From: Parcubacteria group bacterium
Lineage (GTDB): Bacteria; Patescibacteriota; Minisyncoccia; Moranbacterales; UBA2206
Direction: 5' to 3'
NCBI GenBank assembly: GCA_041661275.1
Contig: JBAZUU010000001.1
Span: 35,493 to 99,492 of the forward strand
Length of the DNA: 64,000 nucleotides
Shown: one piece after another, positions 3,905 through 43,307 of the stretch
How the letters are laid out: every line of letters begins with the position of its first letter
Position numbering within the stretch: position 1 is the stretch's first letter
Made by a program: the position numbers and the translations under genes
Notes under the pieces: model-generated
The model's database searches: none
Seen by the model: only the letters and a program-made list of their open reading frames with translations
What the model was told of the DNA's origin: nothing

Positions 3905-4226
3905 TTTTGTATTTTTAATAAATTAAAATAAGCCGGGTGGGCTACGAAGACAATTTTAGCATAGAATTATTATTTCTTAAAATCTACCTCATCCGCCCCG
4001 ATAAGAATCGGGGCACCTTCTCCTTATAAAGGAGAAAGAAATAATGTAACGTATCCTCCCTCTCCTTTATAAGGAGAGGGATTATGGGTGAGGTCGAGGG
4101 AGTCACTTGCTACTTTATACTTGCTACTTTATACTAAAATCATATGAAAAACCCCGTAAAGAAATTTGCCAAAAAAGTTTGTCTACAGGGTTGATCTAGA
4201 AAAATAACCAAGAAAAATCTATCTTT

Positions 4227-7707: not shown

Positions 7708-7800
7708 AAAATTAGTTTAATTATTACTGCTTTTATTCTAGCATAAAGCCGTCGGATATTTCCAATAGAAGTTGTGTTTTAGTATTATAATAGAGGATTT

Positions 7801-7848
7801 AGAGGTTCGACCTCTAACACGCTCTAACGCTTTAGAGGTCGAACCTCT
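7801..7848. promoter_or_regulatory. pair of mutually inverted 15-bp palindromes (agaggttcgacctct / agaggtcgaacctct) in the divergent pgm-ychF region
   Basis: Each is itself a palindrome, and the second is the reverse complement of the first. Confidence 0.4.
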
Positions 7849-7900
7849 AAAAAGCACCCGTTGATAAAACCATTATACTATACTACTATTCGTACATTGG

Positions 7901-7930
7901 TATATTCGTATTAAATTCGTAATTCGTAAA
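7901..7930 (+). promoter_or_regulatory. TTCGTA-array motif (tatattcgta-N4-aattcgtaattcgta) immediately upstream of ychF
   Basis: Nearly identical 30-mer recurs at 10241-10270 upstream of rpsR. Confidence 0.4.
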
Positions 7931-7932
7931 GT

Positions 7933-9012
7933 ATGAAAATAGGAATAGTTGGCCTCCCCAATGTCGGGAAATCAACCCTTTTCAAAGCCCTGACTAAAAC
8001 GCCAGTGGATATTAATAATTATCCATTTTGCACTATTGAACCGAATGTTGGAATTGTTAAGGTACCCGACGAGAGGTTGGATAAGCTGGCTGAGATGTCT
8101 AAATCAAAAAAGGTGGTACCGGCTATCATTGAATTTGTGGATATCGCGGGACTAGTGAAAGGCGCTTCCACCGGAGAAGGATTGGGCAATAAATTTCTGG
8201 CCAACATCCATGAAGTGGACGCTATCGTCCATGTAGTTCGAGCCTTTCAAAATCCCAGTATTATTCACGTACATAATGAAATTAATCCCCTATCGGATAT
8301 TGAGGTGATAAATACGGAATTAATTTTGGCAGATCTAGAAACAGTCAAGAAAGTGAGAGTGCGTTTGGAAAAAGATGTCCGGGGGAACAAGAAAGGCGCG
8401 GATGTTCAACTGGCCATTCTTGAAAAGATACAGAAAACCTTAGAAAATGGAAATCTTGCCAATTCTCTGGTAGAGACGCCCCGTCGGGGCGTCTCTACGG
8501 AGCAATTGGATCTGTCAGAAGATAACACTAAAATTATTTACCGAGAATTATCCCTTCTTACTGCTAAACCTTTCATTTACGCCTATAATGTAAGCGATAT
8601 TTCGGAAAAATTATCAGACGATCTTGAAAATAAAAACCACGTGAAATTGGATATTAAGATAGAAGAAGAACTGATTGAAATGAGCGCGGAAGAAGCGTTG
8701 GAGTTGGAAATAAAGTCTAATTTAAACGAGCTTATCGTAAAAGCGTATTATACCCTCGGATTGATTACATTTCTCACGACCGGCGAAGACGAATCCCGCG
8801 CTTGGACTATACTGAAAGATTCCACCGCGCCTATTGCCGGCGCTGCTATCCACAATGATTTCAAGGACCGTTTCATCCGCGCCGAAGTCATCGCCTGGGA
8901 TAAACTCCTTGAAATCGGTTCCTGGTCAAAAGCGCGAGAACTGGGAAAACTGCAATTAGAGGGAAAAGAATATGTTGTGCAAGATGGTGATGTCATTGAA
9001 TTTAAGATATAG
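7933..9012 (+). CDS. ychF: ribosome-binding ATPase YchF (Obg-family GTPase)
   Basis: IGIVGLPNVGKSTLF P-loop. C-terminal TGS-like region. Length 359 aa. Confidence 0.9.
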   Translation: MKIGIVGLPNVGKSTLFKALTKTPVDINNYPFCTIEPNVGIVKVPDERLDKLAEMSKSKKVVPAIIEFVDIAGLVKGASTGEGLGNKFLANIHEVDAIVHVVRAFQNPSIIHVHNEINPLSDIEVINTELILADLETVKKVRVRLEKDVRGNKKGADVQLAILEKIQKTLENGNLANSLVETPRRGVSTEQLDLSEDNTKIIYRELSLLTAKPFIYAYNVSDISEKLSDDLENKNHVKLDIKIEEELIEMSAEEALELEIKSNLNELIVKAYYTLGLITFLTTGEDESRAWTILKDSTAPIAGAAIHNDFKDRFIRAEVIAWDKLLEIGSWSKARELGKLQLEGKEYVVQDGDVIEFKI

Positions 9013-9156
9013 CTATTGACTAATGATCAATTAGCTATTATACTTATTTTAATCTAGAAAGCCCATAGTTTTCTCGCCCCGACGTGCGTCGGGGATAAGA
9101 AAACACCATCCGCCATGGGACTTTCTATTGGCGGTTTAATCATTTATAATCAAACT

Positions 9157-9636
9157 ATGCGATACGAACTGTTTTATCTCATCGGTGCTTCCCGCGAAGC
9201 TGACGCTGAAAAAATCAAAGAAGACATCATGAAACTGGTTACCGAAGCCGGTGGTGTTTTCGAGGAGAAGGAAACCATAGAAAAACGAAGACTAGCCTAC
9301 CAGATCAAGCACGAAACCCATGGGATCTTCATTGCTCAAAGATTCGAGCTGGACACGGAAAAAATTCCGGAGTTGAGTAAAAAAATAAACCTCTACCCCA
9401 ACCTCACTCGATTCATAATCAGCAAGGCTAACGAACTACCGGAACTAAAAACTAAAGAGGAAAGAATAAGTGAATCAATGACCAGACCTGCGCCGGTAAA
9501 AGAAGTGGAAAAGAAAATCGAAACTCCAGCCAAAAAAGAAGAAGTAAAAGAAGACACTAAAAAAGAAGAGTCGAAAGAAAAGCCGGCCAGCGACGATGAT
9601 ATTGATAAAAAATTAGAAGAAATACTAAATATATAA
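9157..9636 (+). CDS. rpsF: 30S ribosomal protein S6 with lysine/acidic C-terminal tail
   Basis: MRYELFYLI... matches S6 N-termini. Start moved to the internal ATG at 9157 (the ORF track starts at 9115). Confidence 0.8.
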   Translation: MRYELFYLIGASREADAEKIKEDIMKLVTEAGGVFEEKETIEKRRLAYQIKHETHGIFIAQRFELDTEKIPELSKKINLYPNLTRFIISKANELPELKTKEERISESMTRPAPVKEVEKKIETPAKKEEVKEDTKKEESKEKPASDDDIDKKLEEILNI

Positions 9637-9707
9637 ATTTTAAGTTTTAAATTTAAAATTTGAAATTGAATTTTAAGTAACTTAATTTTAAATTAAAAAT
9701 TAATCTT

Positions 9708-10184
9708 ATGAATGTCAATAAAGTTCTTCTCGTGGGAAGACTGACTCGCGATCCGGAGTTGAGAACTACGTCGACCGGTCAGACTGTCGCCTCCATCTCT
9801 ATGGCGACCAACAGATTCTGGAAAGACAAAAACGGACAAAGACAGGATCAGACTGAATTTCACAATATTGTTCTTTGGGGAAGACTGGGTGAGATCGCCG
9901 GGCAATATCTGACTAAGGGCCAGGAATGCTATATCGAAGGAAGGATGCAGACTAGAAAATATACCGCCAAGGACGGCCAGGAAAGAAGAGCGACGGAAGT
10001 TGTCGCTGAAAATATGCAACTTGGCTCACGTCCGCAAGGACAAGGATCAGCGCCACGTTCCGGAGGATTCACTCCATCGGCTCCCGCCCAAAATCAAGCC
10101 GCGCAATCTGCTCCAGCCGAAGCACTTCCGACCATTAATCTTGATGAGGAGGAGGAAGTAAAAATTGAAGACGTACCGTTCTAA
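9708..10184 (+). CDS. ssb: single-stranded DNA-binding protein
   Basis: OB-fold N-terminus (LVGRLTRDPELR), Gly/Gln-rich linker, acidic C-terminus ending DVPF. Confidence 0.9.
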   Translation: MNVNKVLLVGRLTRDPELRTTSTGQTVASISMATNRFWKDKNGQRQDQTEFHNIVLWGRLGEIAGQYLTKGQECYIEGRMQTRKYTAKDGQERRATEVVAENMQLGSRPQGQGSAPRSGGFTPSAPAQNQAAQSAPAEALPTINLDEEEEVKIEDVPF

Positions 10185-10240
10185 TCTCTACTAATTACTA
10201 ATCAAATACTAATATACCAATCTCTTTTATTTGTAATTAG

Positions 10241-10270
10241 TATATTCGTACAAAATTCGTAATTCGTAGA
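10241..10270 (+). promoter_or_regulatory. TTCGTA-array motif upstream of rpsR
   Basis: tatattcgtacaaaattcgtaattcgtagag differs at 3 of 31 positions from the 7901-7930 element. Confidence 0.4.
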
Positions 10271-10291
10271 GAAAGAATTAATTTATTGTAA

Positions 10292-10519
10292 ATGAACCAT
10301 ATGAACGAAGTTAACGAAAAAAAGCTTTGCCATTTCTGCCAGAATAAAATAGACAAAATCGATTTTAAGGATGCCTATCTCATCCGTCGTTTTATGAATT
10401 CCCAGGGAAAGATCTATCCTCCCAAAAAACATGGGACCTGCGCTAAGCATCAAAGAACGCTGGCTAACGCCATCAAAAAAGCGCGAACCATGGCTCTTGT
10501 GCCATTTGTCGCCCGATAA
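10292..10519 (+). CDS. rpsR: 30S ribosomal protein S18
   Basis: CHFC...IDFKDAYLIRRF....PPKKHGTCAKHQRTLANAIKKAR is the S18 signature. Confidence 0.9.
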   Translation: MNHMNEVNEKKLCHFCQNKIDKIDFKDAYLIRRFMNSQGKIYPPKKHGTCAKHQRTLANAIKKARTMALVPFVAR

Positions 10520-11590: not shown

Positions 11591-11985
11591 GGGGATGAAC
11601 TGGTTTCGACAGATTGTACATTTAAAATATGCAAGCCGGGCCGAATACCCGTAAAAATATTCAAAATGTTATAAGTGCAAACTTACTAACGAAGGCAAAA
11701 ACTGTATTCGCGCAAGCGTTTACTTCAAATTTTGCTTACGCTACAGCCTAATTAATTTTAGACAGTAGCCATCGAACTGTCGAAGTCTCATAGACAGAAC
11801 TTGGTGTCAAACATGAGAATAGCGCGGATTGCATTTCCTTGGCAATATGCGTAAAATAAACATAGGGATAAGTTGAAGTAATTTTTTCTATTTTTATCTT
11901 TAACTGAAATTACCAAATAGGATAAGCTTGTAGATTATTTTGAATGAATAATTTTGGACGCGAGTTCGATTCTCGCCATCTCCAC
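11591..11985 (+). ncRNA. ssrA: tmRNA (SsrA)
   Basis: 5' GGGGATGAACTGGTTTCGAC. 3' GGACGCGAGTTCGATTCTCGCCATCTCCA is the tRNA-like T-arm/acceptor. Internal tag ORF is ...NFAYATA followed by TAA. Confidence 0.8.
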
Positions 11986-12000
11986 ATAGCGATGCCAATC

Positions 12001-12070
12001 TACGAATGCATGCGAATGTCACGAATAGTTCGCATCATTCGCATGTGGTTCGTATCGTTCGTATCGCTAC
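12001..12070 (+). promoter_or_regulatory. nested palindromes rich in TTCGCA/TTCGTA units in the infC leader
   Basis: atgcgaatg...cattcgcat and cgaatagttcg palindromes. Candidate operator for the infC-rpmI-rplT operon. Confidence 0.35.
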
Positions 12071-12170
12071 TAATTAGTAACATAAATATATCAGACGAAC
12101 ATTTCAGAGAAGGCCTTTTGTAAAAAAGGAACCTCTAACCAGGATCAATGAGCGAATTTGGGCGCGCGAA

Positions 12171-12635
12171 GTGCGTGTTATCGGCGCGGAAGGTGAACAA
12201 TTAGGTGTTATGCCGCCCCAACAGGCAATCCTCATTGCCAAGGAAAACGGCTTGGATCTTGTTGAAGTTTCTCCTAAAGCCGTGCCTCCAGTTTGCCGCA
12301 TCATGGATTTTGGAAAATTTCAATATCAAAAATCGAGACAGGAAAGACAAAATAAATCCAAGCAGAAGAAATTTGAGATAAAGGGAATCCGCTTGGGAGT
12401 CAGGACTGATGACCATGATTTGAATTTTAAAAAAGATCAAGCCGATAAATTTCTGAAAAAAGGAAATAAGGTGAAGATTGAGATAATCCTGCGAGGTCGT
12501 GAAAAGGCTCATCAGGATCTCGCCAGAACCAATCTTATAAACTTTTTGAAATCCATTGTTACTGATTATAAAGTCGAACAGGATATAAAAAGATTCCCAG
12601 GAGGATTCAATGTAATAATAACCCCCAATAACTAA
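12171..12635 (+). CDS. infC: translation initiation factor IF-3; true start probably an upstream non-AUG codon (ATC/ATT near 12144)
   Basis: In-frame upstream codons encode INERIWAREVRVIGAEGEQLGV, matching IF3 N-termini. There is no ATG. The tracked ORF begins at GTG 12171. Confidence 0.85.
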   Translation: MRVIGAEGEQLGVMPPQQAILIAKENGLDLVEVSPKAVPPVCRIMDFGKFQYQKSRQERQNKSKQKKFEIKGIRLGVRTDDHDLNFKKDQADKFLKKGNKVKIEIILRGREKAHQDLARTNLINFLKSIVTDYKVEQDIKRFPGGFNVIITPNN

Positions 12636-13228: not shown

Positions 13229-13258
13229 AAAACTCCCGCTTATTTGCGGGTGTTTTTT
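13229..13258 (+). terminator. rho-independent terminator after rplT
   Basis: cccgc-ttatttg-cggg followed by tttttt. Confidence 0.5.
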
Positions 13259-13274
13259 ATTCGTACATTTGTAG

Positions 13275-24928: not shown

Positions 24929-25282
24929 GACTTTTGGGTTTTTATATTTATATTCTACCTATATTCTACAATGAAAAGTAAAAGCCCGCCACGATGTGAG
25001 CAGGCTTTTAGCAGACCCTTCCTTTTAAAGATCTACTTTTGTTATTTAGCGACGCCATTGCCATTCCTGCTGGCATCCCCAATCATTCGTATATAAATAA
25101 AACCATTACTTTCTGGATGGGTGCCAATCCTAATTCTTCTCTTTCTCATTTTTGCGACTTCCTTACAATTTCGAGGAAATACAAAACCCAGTTCATTTCT
25201 GACAACCGCCTCGGTAATTTCAACATAATTCATAACCCATCTCCTTGAAGAAAAGTTCAGAGCAAATACCGATAAAGAACAA

Positions 25283-28328: not shown

Positions 28329-28501
28329 AGTGTTTTTTTGTAAGTTTACCCCGTTAAATTGGTTTTTTATTTAATGGGGTAATTAATTACGTAATTAAAT
28401 GTACCTGACTCCCTCATTCCCCTTATTCTTTATTAGATTAGTGGGATATAAAGTTTGTCTAAAAGTTTGTCTAATGGTTTGTCTAAAATATCGGATTTTA
28501 G

Positions 28502-41881: not shown

Positions 41882-42409
41882 TTATTTGTTTAAAAAGTAA
41901 AAAAATATACTAGCAAAAATGAGTGGCACAATCGGCATCACTACTTTTTGGAACGGAAAATAGGCCCGGCCGCCATTTTTTTTCTTCAAATATTCATAAT
42001 ATTCGGCGCCTGAAAAAAACAGAATGCATCCGATGGCAATTCCCAAAAGCATCTTGTCTATTCCCCACATTTTATTCAGTTCCTTTCCTACTATTGGATA
42101 GCCTTTTATTTTTATAAAAAACAAAGGAACAATAATCATTAAAAAATACACGATAATCGTCACTGCTTTCATTTGAAAAAATTTGATATTTTTTCTAGAA
42201 AACCAATCTAGTGTCCAAGAAATCAAAGAAACAGTCAGCCCTCCGACCCATAGTCCGATGATCACATCGTCTACGCCAAATTCTTCGGCCAGTCCCACTC
42301 CGGCTCCGACGGCAATCGTGCATATCGGGCAAACAGCCAGGGCCTTAGGCGCGACACAAAAAACTCCCGTTAAAATAAAAGATGTTAACGTTATTATAAT
42401 CCTCCTCAT
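41882..42409 (-). CDS. membrane protein (hypothetical); start probably at 42409, not 42442
   Basis: The tracked N-terminus is encoded by TTCGTA/TTCGCA repeats. The internal ATG gives MRRIIITL... followed by TM segments. Confidence 0.45.
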   Translation of the reverse strand: MRRIIITLTSFILTGVFCVAPKALAVCPICTIAVGAGVGLAEEFGVDDVIIGLWVGGLTVSLISWTLDWFSRKNIKFFQMKAVTIIVYFLMIIVPLFFIKIKGYPIVGKELNKMWGIDKMLLGIAIGCILFFSGAEYYEYLKKKNGGRAYFPFQKVVMPIVPLIFASIFFYFLNK

Positions 42410-42442
42410 TCGTAGATTCGCATGCAATTCGTAGATTCGCAT
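42407..42442. promoter_or_regulatory. tandem attcgtagattcgcat x2 (TTCGTA-array motif)
   Basis: Read directly from the sequence. Related arrays at 42941-42980. Confidence 0.4.
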
Positions 42443-42444
42443 CG

Positions 42445-42807
42445 CTATTTTGTCTTATCCTGAAAATATTTAATGACATCTTCCTGGCCCTCATAACATT
42501 TTCCCCCGTCCCAAAGCATGGGCACGCCCATCTGTTTTTCGTCAGTTGTTCCGCAAGCCTTATATTTCTCCACCAGTATTGCGCTGTTGTCTTTGTTATG
42601 AAAAACCTCTACTTGGGTAAAGCTTACCTTTTGGGCAATATTGTTCTTATTTATAAAATCCTCAACAATCTGACAGTGTGGACATTCTTTGCCATAAAAA
42701 AGTAGGACGCCACTAGCGTTAGTCGCACTCGGACTTTTGCTAAAAAGCATATAGCCTAAGAACGCTAATATTAAAACAATAAGAATTACTAAAATTGCCT
42801 TCTTCAT
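42445..42807 (-). CDS. thioredoxin-fold thiol-disulfide oxidoreductase (CPHC), membrane-anchored
   Basis: YGKECPHCQ active site. N-terminal TM. Confidence 0.6.
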   Translation of the reverse strand: MKKAILVILIVLILAFLGYMLFSKSPSATNASGVLLFYGKECPHCQIVEDFINKNNIAQKVSFTQVEVFHNKDNSAILVEKYKACGTTDEKQMGVPMLWDGGKCYEGQEDVIKYFQDKTK

Positions 42808-42977
42808 AAAATGTTTTGGTTAATAATTCTACTTAATATTAGCAACAAAAACATTTTTAGCCAAGCAAACGGTATTAAGGATGTAAAAACAGCCCCGAGC
42901 TTGCGCCTAGGGCCATTTTTTATCTAGAAGATACTCTTTTATTCGTATGTGCGCGTTCGTAGTGCGCTATTCGCATA

Positions 42978-43307
42978 CTAGTATCTGTCTCTTCGTCCGC
43001 CTCCGAAACCACCTCTGTCTCCACCTCGATTGAAACCACCAGATCTCTGGGGTCGATCGCCTTGGGGACGAGCTTCGTTGACAGTCAGAGTTCTACCTTC
43101 GAATTCCTGTCCGTTGAACATTTCAACAGCTTTTTTGGCTTCCTCGTCAGTCGCCATTTCTACGAAGCCGAAGCCTCGAGAACGTCCGGACATTTTGTCC
43201 ATGATGATGGTAGCAGAGACAACTTGTCCAGCTCCAGCGAATAGAGAACCCAAGGAATCCTGGGTAGTATTGTAGGAAAGTCCTCCTACATACAACTTTT
43301 GACTCAT
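42978..43307 (-). CDS. glycine-rich RNA-binding protein (RRM)
   Basis: RNP2 LYVGGL, RNP1 RGFGFVEM, RGG-rich tail. Confidence 0.8.
   Translation of the reverse strand: MSQKLYVGGLSYNTTQDSLGSLFAGAGQVVSATIIMDKMSGRSRGFGFVEMATDEEAKKAVEMFNGQEFEGRTLTVNEARPQGDRPQRSGGFNRGGDRGGFGGGRRDRY

Follow-up and report, generated by a model that had tools for sequence, protein, structure and literature searches.

A start-proximal (A)TTCGTA repeat module, solo or folded into intercistronic hairpins, as a candidate cis-acting mRNA element in Candidatus Moranbacteria

The stretch of DNA analysed here, called the window (64 kb, in whose coordinates positions are given), belongs to a bacterium of the candidate phyla radiation (CPR). 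Relatives of its YchF protein, the top match being 80% identical, assign it to Candidatus Moranbacteria (Moraniibacteriota). Pfam supports ychF (7933-9012, plus strand; YchF-GTPase_C and MMR_HSR1), which encodes a ribosome-binding ATPase, rpsF, ssb, rpsR (10292-10519, plus strand; Ribosomal_S18), which encodes ribosomal protein S18, efp, infC (12090-12635, plus strand), which encodes IF3, and the gene of an RRM protein (42978-43307; RRM_1). Shine-Dalgarno (SD) usage is low, with even a lenient 4-mer SD-like match in only 18 of 66 genes and none upstream of ychF or rpsR. These two genes are preceded by near-identical copies of a repeat, at 7901-7931 and 10241-10271, which differ at three positions and measure 31 nt each, one more than a sequence-only reading of this DNA had given. 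Their likeness continues one unit further 5', where ATTGGTA (7896) corresponds to ATTAGTA (10236). A 28-nt pattern, TATATTCGTANNAAATTCGTAATTCGTA, covers both copies; at up to three mismatches it matches these two sites only in the window, and it had no match in 100 dinucleotide-preserving shuffles. The single heptamer ATTCGTA is mildly enriched (16 observed against 9.9 expected, a count reached by 2 of 100 shuffles), and seven of the 16 lie in the two spans of about 40 nt that hold the ychF and rpsR copies. On sequence grounds, the two copies are members of a lineage-specific repeat module with a constant arrangement of four or five (A)TTCGTA units, in which two or three units at a distance of 7-8 nt are followed by a step of 10-11 nt and then by two abutting heptamers ending in ...ATTCGTAATTCGTA[G/A]. 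The further arrays that had been described at infC and at two regions near 42 kb are also present.

Upstream of ychF the module occurs as a solo forward array of five units (7888-7928, plus strand), starting at 7888, 7896 (the degenerate ATTGGTA), 7904, 7915 and 7922, that is, with periods of 8, 8, 11 and 7 nt. The final unit ends 4 nt 5' of the ATG at 7933. A promoter scan, together with the relatives, predicts a sigma-70-type promoter, TTGATA-17-TACTAT (7861-7889, plus strand), and the last two bases of its -10 hexamer are the first two of unit 1. By the usual promoter geometry, transcription would start at about 7896 and the array would make up nearly the entire predicted leader of about 35 nt. 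The array RNA folds at -6.3 kcal/mol, no better than its shuffles (z = +0.23), and no structure is predicted for it.

We fetched 80 related ychF loci for comparison (loci and contigs are designated L002, L003 and so on). About 13 of the 80 share one layout, in which the promoter runs into TCGTA and is followed by ATTCGTA-n-ATTCGTA-n(3-4)-ATTCGTAATTCGTA[G/A], 4-10 nt and the ATG; in about 13 relatives TTGAT[TA]-17-TAnnAT directly abuts TCGTA. In alignment A1 of 10 such genomes the units are invariant, while the promoter spacer and the bases between units vary. Fourfold-degenerate ychF sites of the same genomes show an identity of 0.40, against 0.29 expected from composition, and are thus near saturation. 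Invariant units beside nearly saturated synonymous sites mean that the array is either under constraint or continually homogenised. The view that this is a conserved, non-random cis element in leader or intercistronic RNA next to start codons is borne out, the ychF copy being kept in at least 10 related genera of Moranbacteria. Insertions of 70-110 nt interrupt the leader array in L003, L011 and L016.

The divergent pgm-ychF spacer of the window also holds two near-identical perfect palindromes just 5' of the ychF -35 hexamer, at 7799-7817 and 7831-7851 and 13 nt apart (TTAGAGGT-TCG-ACCTCTAA and TTTAGAGGT-CGA-ACCTCTAAA). They could be the operator of a regulator or a pair of hairpins, and were not seen in those ychF upstream sequences of the relatives that were read.

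At rpsR the module takes a paired form. The copy at 10241-10271 provides the 3' arm of an imperfect hairpin of 88 nt (10185-10272, plus strand), which lies in the ssb-rpsR spacer and folds at -22 kcal/mol (z = -3.9), a stability that none of 200 shuffles reached. Its 5' arm starts 1 nt past the ssb stop codon and holds three TACTAAT units, so that each ACTAAT/ATTCGT pair carries one U.C mismatch, three in all. The 3' arm consists of ATTAGTA at 10236 and ATTCGTA at 10244, 10255 and 10262, with ATTTGTA on the loop side at 10229. Its final unit ends at 10268, which is 23 nt 5' of the ATG at 10292 or 32 nt 5' of the alternative start at 10301; the latter fits the relatives better, whose N-termini align to MNE.... 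Orthologous ssb-rpsR spacers of L002, L003, L006 and L012 carry (TACGAA)n..(TTCGTA)n hairpins, in which the (TACGAA)n arm starts 1-6 nt past the ssb stop and the (TTCGTA)n arm ends about 8-12 nt before the rpsR ATG. Three of them were folded (L002, L006 and L012) and gave -24 to -33 kcal/mol, with z from -4.5 to -7.2. The hairpin arms have the same layout as the solo array, and in L049, where the hairpin is built of TACAAA and TTTGTA, the unit variants are fully compensated in both arms. In the window, rpsF has an apparent promoter of its own (TTGACT-17-TATACT, 9016-9044); its likely start at 9157 (MRYELFYL...) is preceded by about 110 nt of structured leader without an Rfam match, in place of which the corresponding spacer of L002 holds a TTCGTA hairpin.

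The array described at 12001-12070 before infC is a near-perfect palindrome, and forms an 83-nt hairpin (11987-12069, plus strand; -38.7 kcal/mol, z = -5.2). Its units alternate between TACGAAT and TGCGAAT, plus their complements, and are bounded by AGCGAT...ATCGCT, a subtype that we call type B. Near-identical type B hairpins precede ssb and rpmI in L002 and L006. The infC hairpin extends from the 3' end of tmRNA (11591 to 11985 or 11987) to a point about 20 nt short of the probable infC start. No ATG or GTG lies 5' of the IF3_N domain, which Pfam detects from residue 19, and the frame opens past a stop at 12078 (region 12078-12171); judging from the reading frame, infC probably starts at the in-frame ATC at 12090. 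A non-canonical infC start is expected from IF3 autoregulation. The hairpin directly abuts the tmRNA (11985-12069), and no promoter-like site lies on the plus strand between tmRNA and infC, which makes co-transcription possible, and the hairpin may then serve the 3'-end processing of tmRNA.

Neither this hairpin nor that of rpsR is followed by a T run, and the terminator scan lists neither, though it found the rplT terminator at 13235-13250; they do not qualify as intrinsic terminators, in which a run of U follows a G+C-rich stem. A shortened array, ATTCGTACATTTGTAG (13259-13274, plus strand), is flanked by the rplT terminator and by the end of a 61-aa minus-strand ORF, and looks like a remnant of a fuller array found in a similar after-terminator position in L060.

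Both arrays near 42 kb lie on the minus strand and are oriented TACGAAT relative to their genes. The first, CGATGCGAATCTACGAATTGCATGCGAATCTACGAAT in the minus-strand reading (42408-42444), is half a type B array and fills the gap from the stop of the gene at 42445-42807 to the ATG of the next gene (42409-42407); neither flanking gene has a Pfam match. The second (42941-42977), of the TACGAA/TGCGAA type, lies in the 3' untranslated region (UTR) of the RRM gene, abutting its stop codon, and its fold is not significant (z = -1.7). A half array of 37 nt that is about 97% identical to the first lies upstream of an unrelated, non-orthologous gene in L012, whose product (229 aa, with a HEVAHG motif) we tentatively interpret as an M50-like peptidase. 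Two of the five sites of the window thus flank the RRM gene and two genes without Pfam match, which already speaks against the tie to translation-apparatus genes that the sequence-only reading had proposed.

By class of spacer, TTCGTA-type arrays occupy 39 of 613 that are co-directional, 16 of 149 that are divergent (mostly ychF) and 2 of 165 that are convergent, the co-directional and convergent classes differing significantly (Fisher p = 0.005). In coding sequence they were found in 2 genes over 1.2 Mb (about 0.002 per kb). This association with spacers in which a gene starts excludes that the arrays reflect the k-mer background, and argues against passive accumulation in safe sites. Further arrays were gathered in the related loci and, by scanning metagenomes for ATTCGTAATTCGTA, in other contigs; in 30 array-ORF pairs from relatives and metagenomic contigs, the last unit mostly ends 3-12 nt before the start codon. 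Arrays with the same 3' end precede the genes for S6, SSB, S18, L35, L16, L24 and L6. Within ribosomal-protein operons they take intercistronic positions, ahead of L16, L24 and L6 in L188 and of S6, SSB, S18 and L35 in the relatives. They likewise precede recA, ftsZ, gap (GAPDH), rodZ and the genes for glucose-6-phosphate isomerase, a NiFe hydrogenase subunit, an adenylate-kinase-like protein, an M16 peptidase, a DedA protein and MiaE, and a specific tie to translation has to be given up; what they have in common is that they are core genes, presumably well expressed. Inverted pairs in Moranbacteria loci keep one order, 5'-(TACGAA)n..(TTCGTA)n-3' in 21 cases and the swapped order in none. L012 carries a pair of inverted TTCGTA arrays (2349-2379, minus, and 2780-2810, plus) separated by about 400 nt, like a hairpin with a 400-nt loop; a stop codon precedes one of them by 6 nt, and the start of a NiFe hydrogenase gene follows the other by 5 nt.

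Three features go beyond what had been noticed before: the inverted-pair hairpins, rapid gain and loss among close relatives, and other units at the ychF position. Regarding the last, ychF leaders of other Moranbacteria lineages are built from TTTGTA, CTTTATAG, AACGTTA, ATACT-type or AAGCTA units. Among 81 ychF leaders, 30 hold at least three chained 5-mer copies (3.4 expected) and 21 hold at least four (0.1 expected), and the share with at least four copies is 26% in ychF leaders, about 5% in other upstream regions and 0.1% in coding sequence. The non-TTCGTA unit types are restricted to the ychF leader within about 20 kb, and units can be locus-specific within one genome: L012 has CTTTAT at ychF and TTTCGTA at rpsR, and L049 has TTCGTA at ychF and TTTGTA at rpsR. 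In these genomes, many co-directional spacers form hairpins with arms built from tandem units of about 7 nt, whose sequences are highly varied. In the metagenome scan, ATTCGTA heptamers, both tandem and inverted, turned up in contigs with a G+C content of 27-67%, beside other heptamer arrays. We also observed that every unit type of the ychF leaders contains a stop triplet in the sense strand, TAA, TAG or TGA (L012, L058/L068, L071/L073, L063/L069 and L036/L040/L076); with a period of 7-9 nt, this closes all three frames just before the start codon, a pattern that by rough estimate is unlikely to arise by chance.

Regarding turnover, whole hairpins are present in one locus and absent or replaced at the identical site of another when loci of 86-89% nucleotide identity are compared (L003 13777-13895 against L011; L009 8604-8674 against L016; L017 18133-18260 against L028). 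Such sites may hold hairpins of other units, or an unrelated structured repeat of about 170 nt. This rapid turnover indicates that individual copies are dispensable, and that the family has some of the behaviour of a mobile or recombining repeat. The repeat of about 170 nt is itself a dispersed element with long-range pairing (CCCTGCACCAATTC...GGAATTGGTGCGGG) that sits at intergenic sites where close relatives have short-unit hairpins; copies lie at L003 3118-3287 and 11488-11658, L016 6512-6677 and 7060-7226, L011 13017-13187 and L015 9090-9253, with weaker ones in L076, L080, L018, L033 and L073. The window holds no copy of it, and no Rfam family matches it.

Known RNA families do not account for these arrays. 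Only tmRNA and a tRNA pass the Rfam gathering score in the whole window, nothing credible appears between 7700 and 13300 at E <= 5, and the covariance models of cis-regulatory RNAs, such as ribosomal-protein leaders and the L20 leader, do not match the arrays. Neither the window nor the fetched loci contain rRNA. A literature search with the TTCGTA string returned only loxP and primer matches, and a search on Patescibacteria promoters and SD sequences nothing relevant. Mimicry of a T-loop or tRNA by UUCGUA was ruled out on the letters themselves, since position 58 would be U instead of A.

We tentatively favour the reading that the array is a cis-acting mRNA element, which in its solo form would serve as an unstructured, SD-independent leader and in its paired form as an intercistronic hairpin for coupling or processing. 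A role at the RNA level is suggested by the positions tight against stop and start codons, by the location between operon cistrons, where promoters and operators are unexpected, and by the difference between the unstructured solo leader (z = +0.23) and the strong hairpins (z from -3.9 to -7.2). The bias to spacers with a gene start, the compensated unit variants of L049, the SD-poor genome, the fixed polarity (21 against 0), the invariant ychF units and the precedent of Beggiatoaceae, discussed below, point the same way. The module would be transcribed within the mRNA and act post-transcriptionally in a host whose genes mostly lack an SD sequence. At ychF, the array would be essentially the whole 5' UTR, A/U-rich, free of AUG, predicted to be unstructured and ending 4-10 nt before the start, and may offer the ribosome a landing region that does not depend on an SD sequence, possibly via a factor that recognises the units. 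At rpsR, infC and in many spacers of the relatives, the (TACGAA)n arm 1-6 nt past the upstream stop would pair with the (TTCGTA)n arm, and the resulting stem-loop, about 80-130 nt long, would take up the whole spacer. In this sense, a ribosome terminating on the upstream gene would melt the base of the stem and expose the downstream start region, which would amount to translational coupling, and the long duplex may double as a site of RNA processing or stabilisation.

Several observations weigh against this interpretation. Under the predicted promoter, unit 1 of the ychF array overlaps the -10 hexamer and discriminator and so would lie outside the transcript, and this is the unit left intact in the decayed ychF arrays of L002, L005 and L008; besides, the transcription start and 5' UTR of ychF are predictions from the consensus promoter. 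In the rpsR hairpin of the window, each of the three unit pairs carries the U.C mismatch. The array at 42408-42444 is reversed (TACGAAT) relative to its downstream gene, that of the M50-like gene in L012 faces the same "wrong" way, and some arrays follow stop codons without a partner arm. The TTCGTA hairpins are equally stable on both strands (sense better in 10, antisense in 10) and so show none of the G.U excess that selection acting on the sense RNA would leave; slightly in favour of the reading, over all structured co-directional spacers the sense strand is the better folder somewhat more often (96 against 76, p = 0.019). Finally, the loss or replacement of hairpins at the same sites and the insertions in ychF leaders imply that no copy is indispensable.

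A more far-reaching version would make the TTCGTA module the recognition site of a dedicated trans-acting factor, either an RNA-binding protein or a ribosome component that reads the repeats. The core housekeeping genes of Moranbacteria with this site would then form a global post-transcriptional regulon, in which the factor takes the place of SD pairing; the complementary arm would be an anti-element that makes initiation depend on upstream translation. We regard this version as improbable. If it held, the unit types at ychF in other lineages would reflect co-evolution of factor and site; a single factor with co-evolving specificity was weakened as a candidate, since loci of one genome differ in unit (L012, L049) and the non-TTCGTA units stay confined to the ychF leader.

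The closest known counterpart is the TAACTGA heptamer repeat of marine Beggiatoaceae, some cyanobacteria and some Bacteroidetes, which lies mostly in forward orientation a few nucleotides from start codons that lack a ribosome-binding site, including those within ribosomal-protein operons, and for which a translational or post-transcriptional role was proposed (MacGregor 2015, PMC4679880). Both families consist of two to six short non-coding units within a few nucleotides of a start, mostly forward (the array at 42408-42444 being an exception here), both precede SD-less genes, with sets inside ribosomal-protein operons, and neither is followed by a single functional class of genes. Strictly tandem heptamers are not found here: only the last two units follow a 7-nt period, and the others are 8 and 10-11 nt apart. 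The unit is (A)TTCGTA, mixed with variants (TTGGTA, TTAGTA, TTTGTA and TTCGCA), the host is a CPR bacterium with a small genome, and the array is kept at an orthologous site, ychF, across genera. Inverted pairs that form hairpins of about 80-130 nt make up about half of the copies here; in a Beggiatoaceae genome, 1 of 170 sets was inverted. The CPR module is therefore a new form of start-proximal short-unit repeat, marked by its fixed multi-unit layout and its inverted pairs.

Cyanobacterial short tandemly repeated repetitive (STRR) sequences are intergenic repeats with a unit of about 7 nt, in long perfect tandem runs of varying copy number. They and other heptameric simple repeats share the intergenic unit of about 7 nt with our arrays, and the ATTCGTA arrays and inverted arrays in contigs of 27-67% G+C recall them. 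Those repeats are long, perfect and variable in copy number, whereas the Moranbacteria module has a fixed set of four or five units, is tight to the boundaries of coding sequences and is conserved. Among RNA-binding regulators, TRAP reads (G/U)AG repeats and HutP reads UAG every 7 nt. The likeness lies in short RNA units, regularly spaced at about 5-7 nt beside a competing structure, that would control a downstream gene; the units here differ in being 6-7 nt rather than triplets and in having dozens of housekeeping targets rather than one operon.

It is also possible, though we find it somewhat less likely, that the arrays form a non-autonomous family of palindromic repeats spread by mobility or recombination, of the kind of REP/REPIN, MITE or RPE, with incidental effects on expression. 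Inverted arrays would then be the element ends and solo arrays half-elements, copies would persist in short untranslated gaps where harm is small, and the ychF copy may have been co-opted; such an origin does not exclude a function as mRNA module. REP, BIME and REPIN sequences are dispersed extragenic hairpins, transcribed in operons, that affect mRNA stability and the translation of neighbouring genes, and the elements described here resemble them as imperfect palindromes that are scattered outside genes in near-identical copies and whose presence varies between relatives. The presence, absence or replacement of hairpins at the same sites in genomes of 86-89% identity, including replacement by the unrelated repeat of about 170 nt, fits this explanation, as do the near-identical copies within a genome (ssb and rpmI in L002, ssb and rpsR in L012, ychF and rpsR in the window) and the half array shared at about 97% by non-orthologous loci of two diverged genomes. 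The constant orientation of the outward ends (21 against 0) resembles terminal inverted repeats, and hairpins equally stable on both strands would be expected of such an element. On the other side, the depletion in convergent 3'-3' spacers (2 of 165) concerns the safest sites and the usual home of REP-like elements, and the ychF array is held at one orthologous, promoter-fused position across genera whose synonymous sites are near saturation. The arms are made of tandem units of 7-8 nt and the stems are longer than in REP sequences; the GT[AG]G head at the 5' end is not found, as the elements read 5'-CTCTAC...GTAGAG-3' on either strand, with GTAG 3' in the stem, so that the order CTAC...GTAG is the reverse of that in REP. 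One clean junction (L003 against L011) showed no target-site duplication, and no RAYT or other transposase is known to be linked to TTCGTA arrays, although no transposase search was made.

A second alternative places the function in double-stranded DNA, the array being an operator for a protein that binds tandem units of 7-8 bp cooperatively, direct or inverted. A protein bound to the ychF array, which covers about -8 to +32 of the promoter, would block initiation or promoter escape. Ribbon-helix-helix operators, such as those of the omega protein of pSM19035 and of MetJ, consist of contiguous 7-8-bp units in direct and inverted orientation, and the spacing here of 7-8 bp with one step of 10-11 bp matches the geometry of omega heptads or MetJ metboxes. 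Units in both orientations relative to the genes, an array that overlaps the promoter at ychF, where unit 1 reaches into the -10 hexamer and discriminator and survives in decayed arrays, conserved units with variable bases in between, and the lack of strand asymmetry in the hairpins would all suit an operator. We nevertheless consider it unlikely: most copies are intercistronic, tight to stop and start codons and without a promoter-like site nearby; independent sites leave both the exclusive 5'-(TACGAA)n..(TTCGTA)n-3' order and the symmetric architecture of the arms unexplained; the units differ between loci of one genome (L012, L049); and no regulator is known.

Very improbable, lastly, is that the arrays are promoters, suggested by -10-like hexamers at unit junctions (TACATT, TATATT, TATAAT), or neutral products of replication slippage, to which heptamers, reported as the commonest long simple repeats of prokaryotes, were ascribed (Mrazek 2007, as cited in PMC4679880) and which would suit intergenic DNA rich in short tandem arrays of other units: with unit spacings of 7, 8 and 10-11 nt, the hexamers would be 12-13 or 20 nt apart and not 16-18, a misfit for which promoters were dropped, the scan places a separate conserved promoter 5' of the ychF array and none inside the rpsR and infC arrays on the plus strand, and slippage with drift is excluded by units that are invariant across genera while neutral sites are near saturation. 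The excess of ychF leaders with at least four copies (26% against about 5% of other upstream regions) also speaks against such an origin, as does the unequal array frequency among classes of intergenic spacers.

The CPR, or Patescibacteria, make up a large uncultivated share of bacterial diversity, and their gene expression is barely known. A module that occupies the position of the ribosome-binding site, and in ribosomal-protein operons switches to a hairpin reaching from stop to start, is a concrete and testable candidate for SD-free initiation and translational coupling, and connects the CPR to the start-proximal heptamer repeats of Beggiatoaceae, cyanobacteria and Bacteroidetes. If it is instead a selfish palindromic repeat, even streamlined genomes of about 1 Mb hold intergenic elements of fast turnover, and gene callers and motif scans need to allow for them.

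A scan of viral contigs for ATTCGTAATTCGTAG, meant to show whether phages copy the signal, gave 24 matches, most of them resembling chance or coding occurrences. Two related IMG/VR contigs (L208 745-759 and L210 3713-3727) carry ATTCGTAATTCGAGTATTCGTAATTCGTAG 4 nt before an ATG, and also bear a small inverted pair elsewhere. In the window, further short tandem duplications lie beside promoter-like hexamers or start codons at 4141-4171 (CTTGCTACTTTATA twice), 24944-24968 (CTATATTCTAC twice, containing TAGAAT twice on the minus strand) and 28451-28488 (GTTTGTCTAA[AT][AG] three times).

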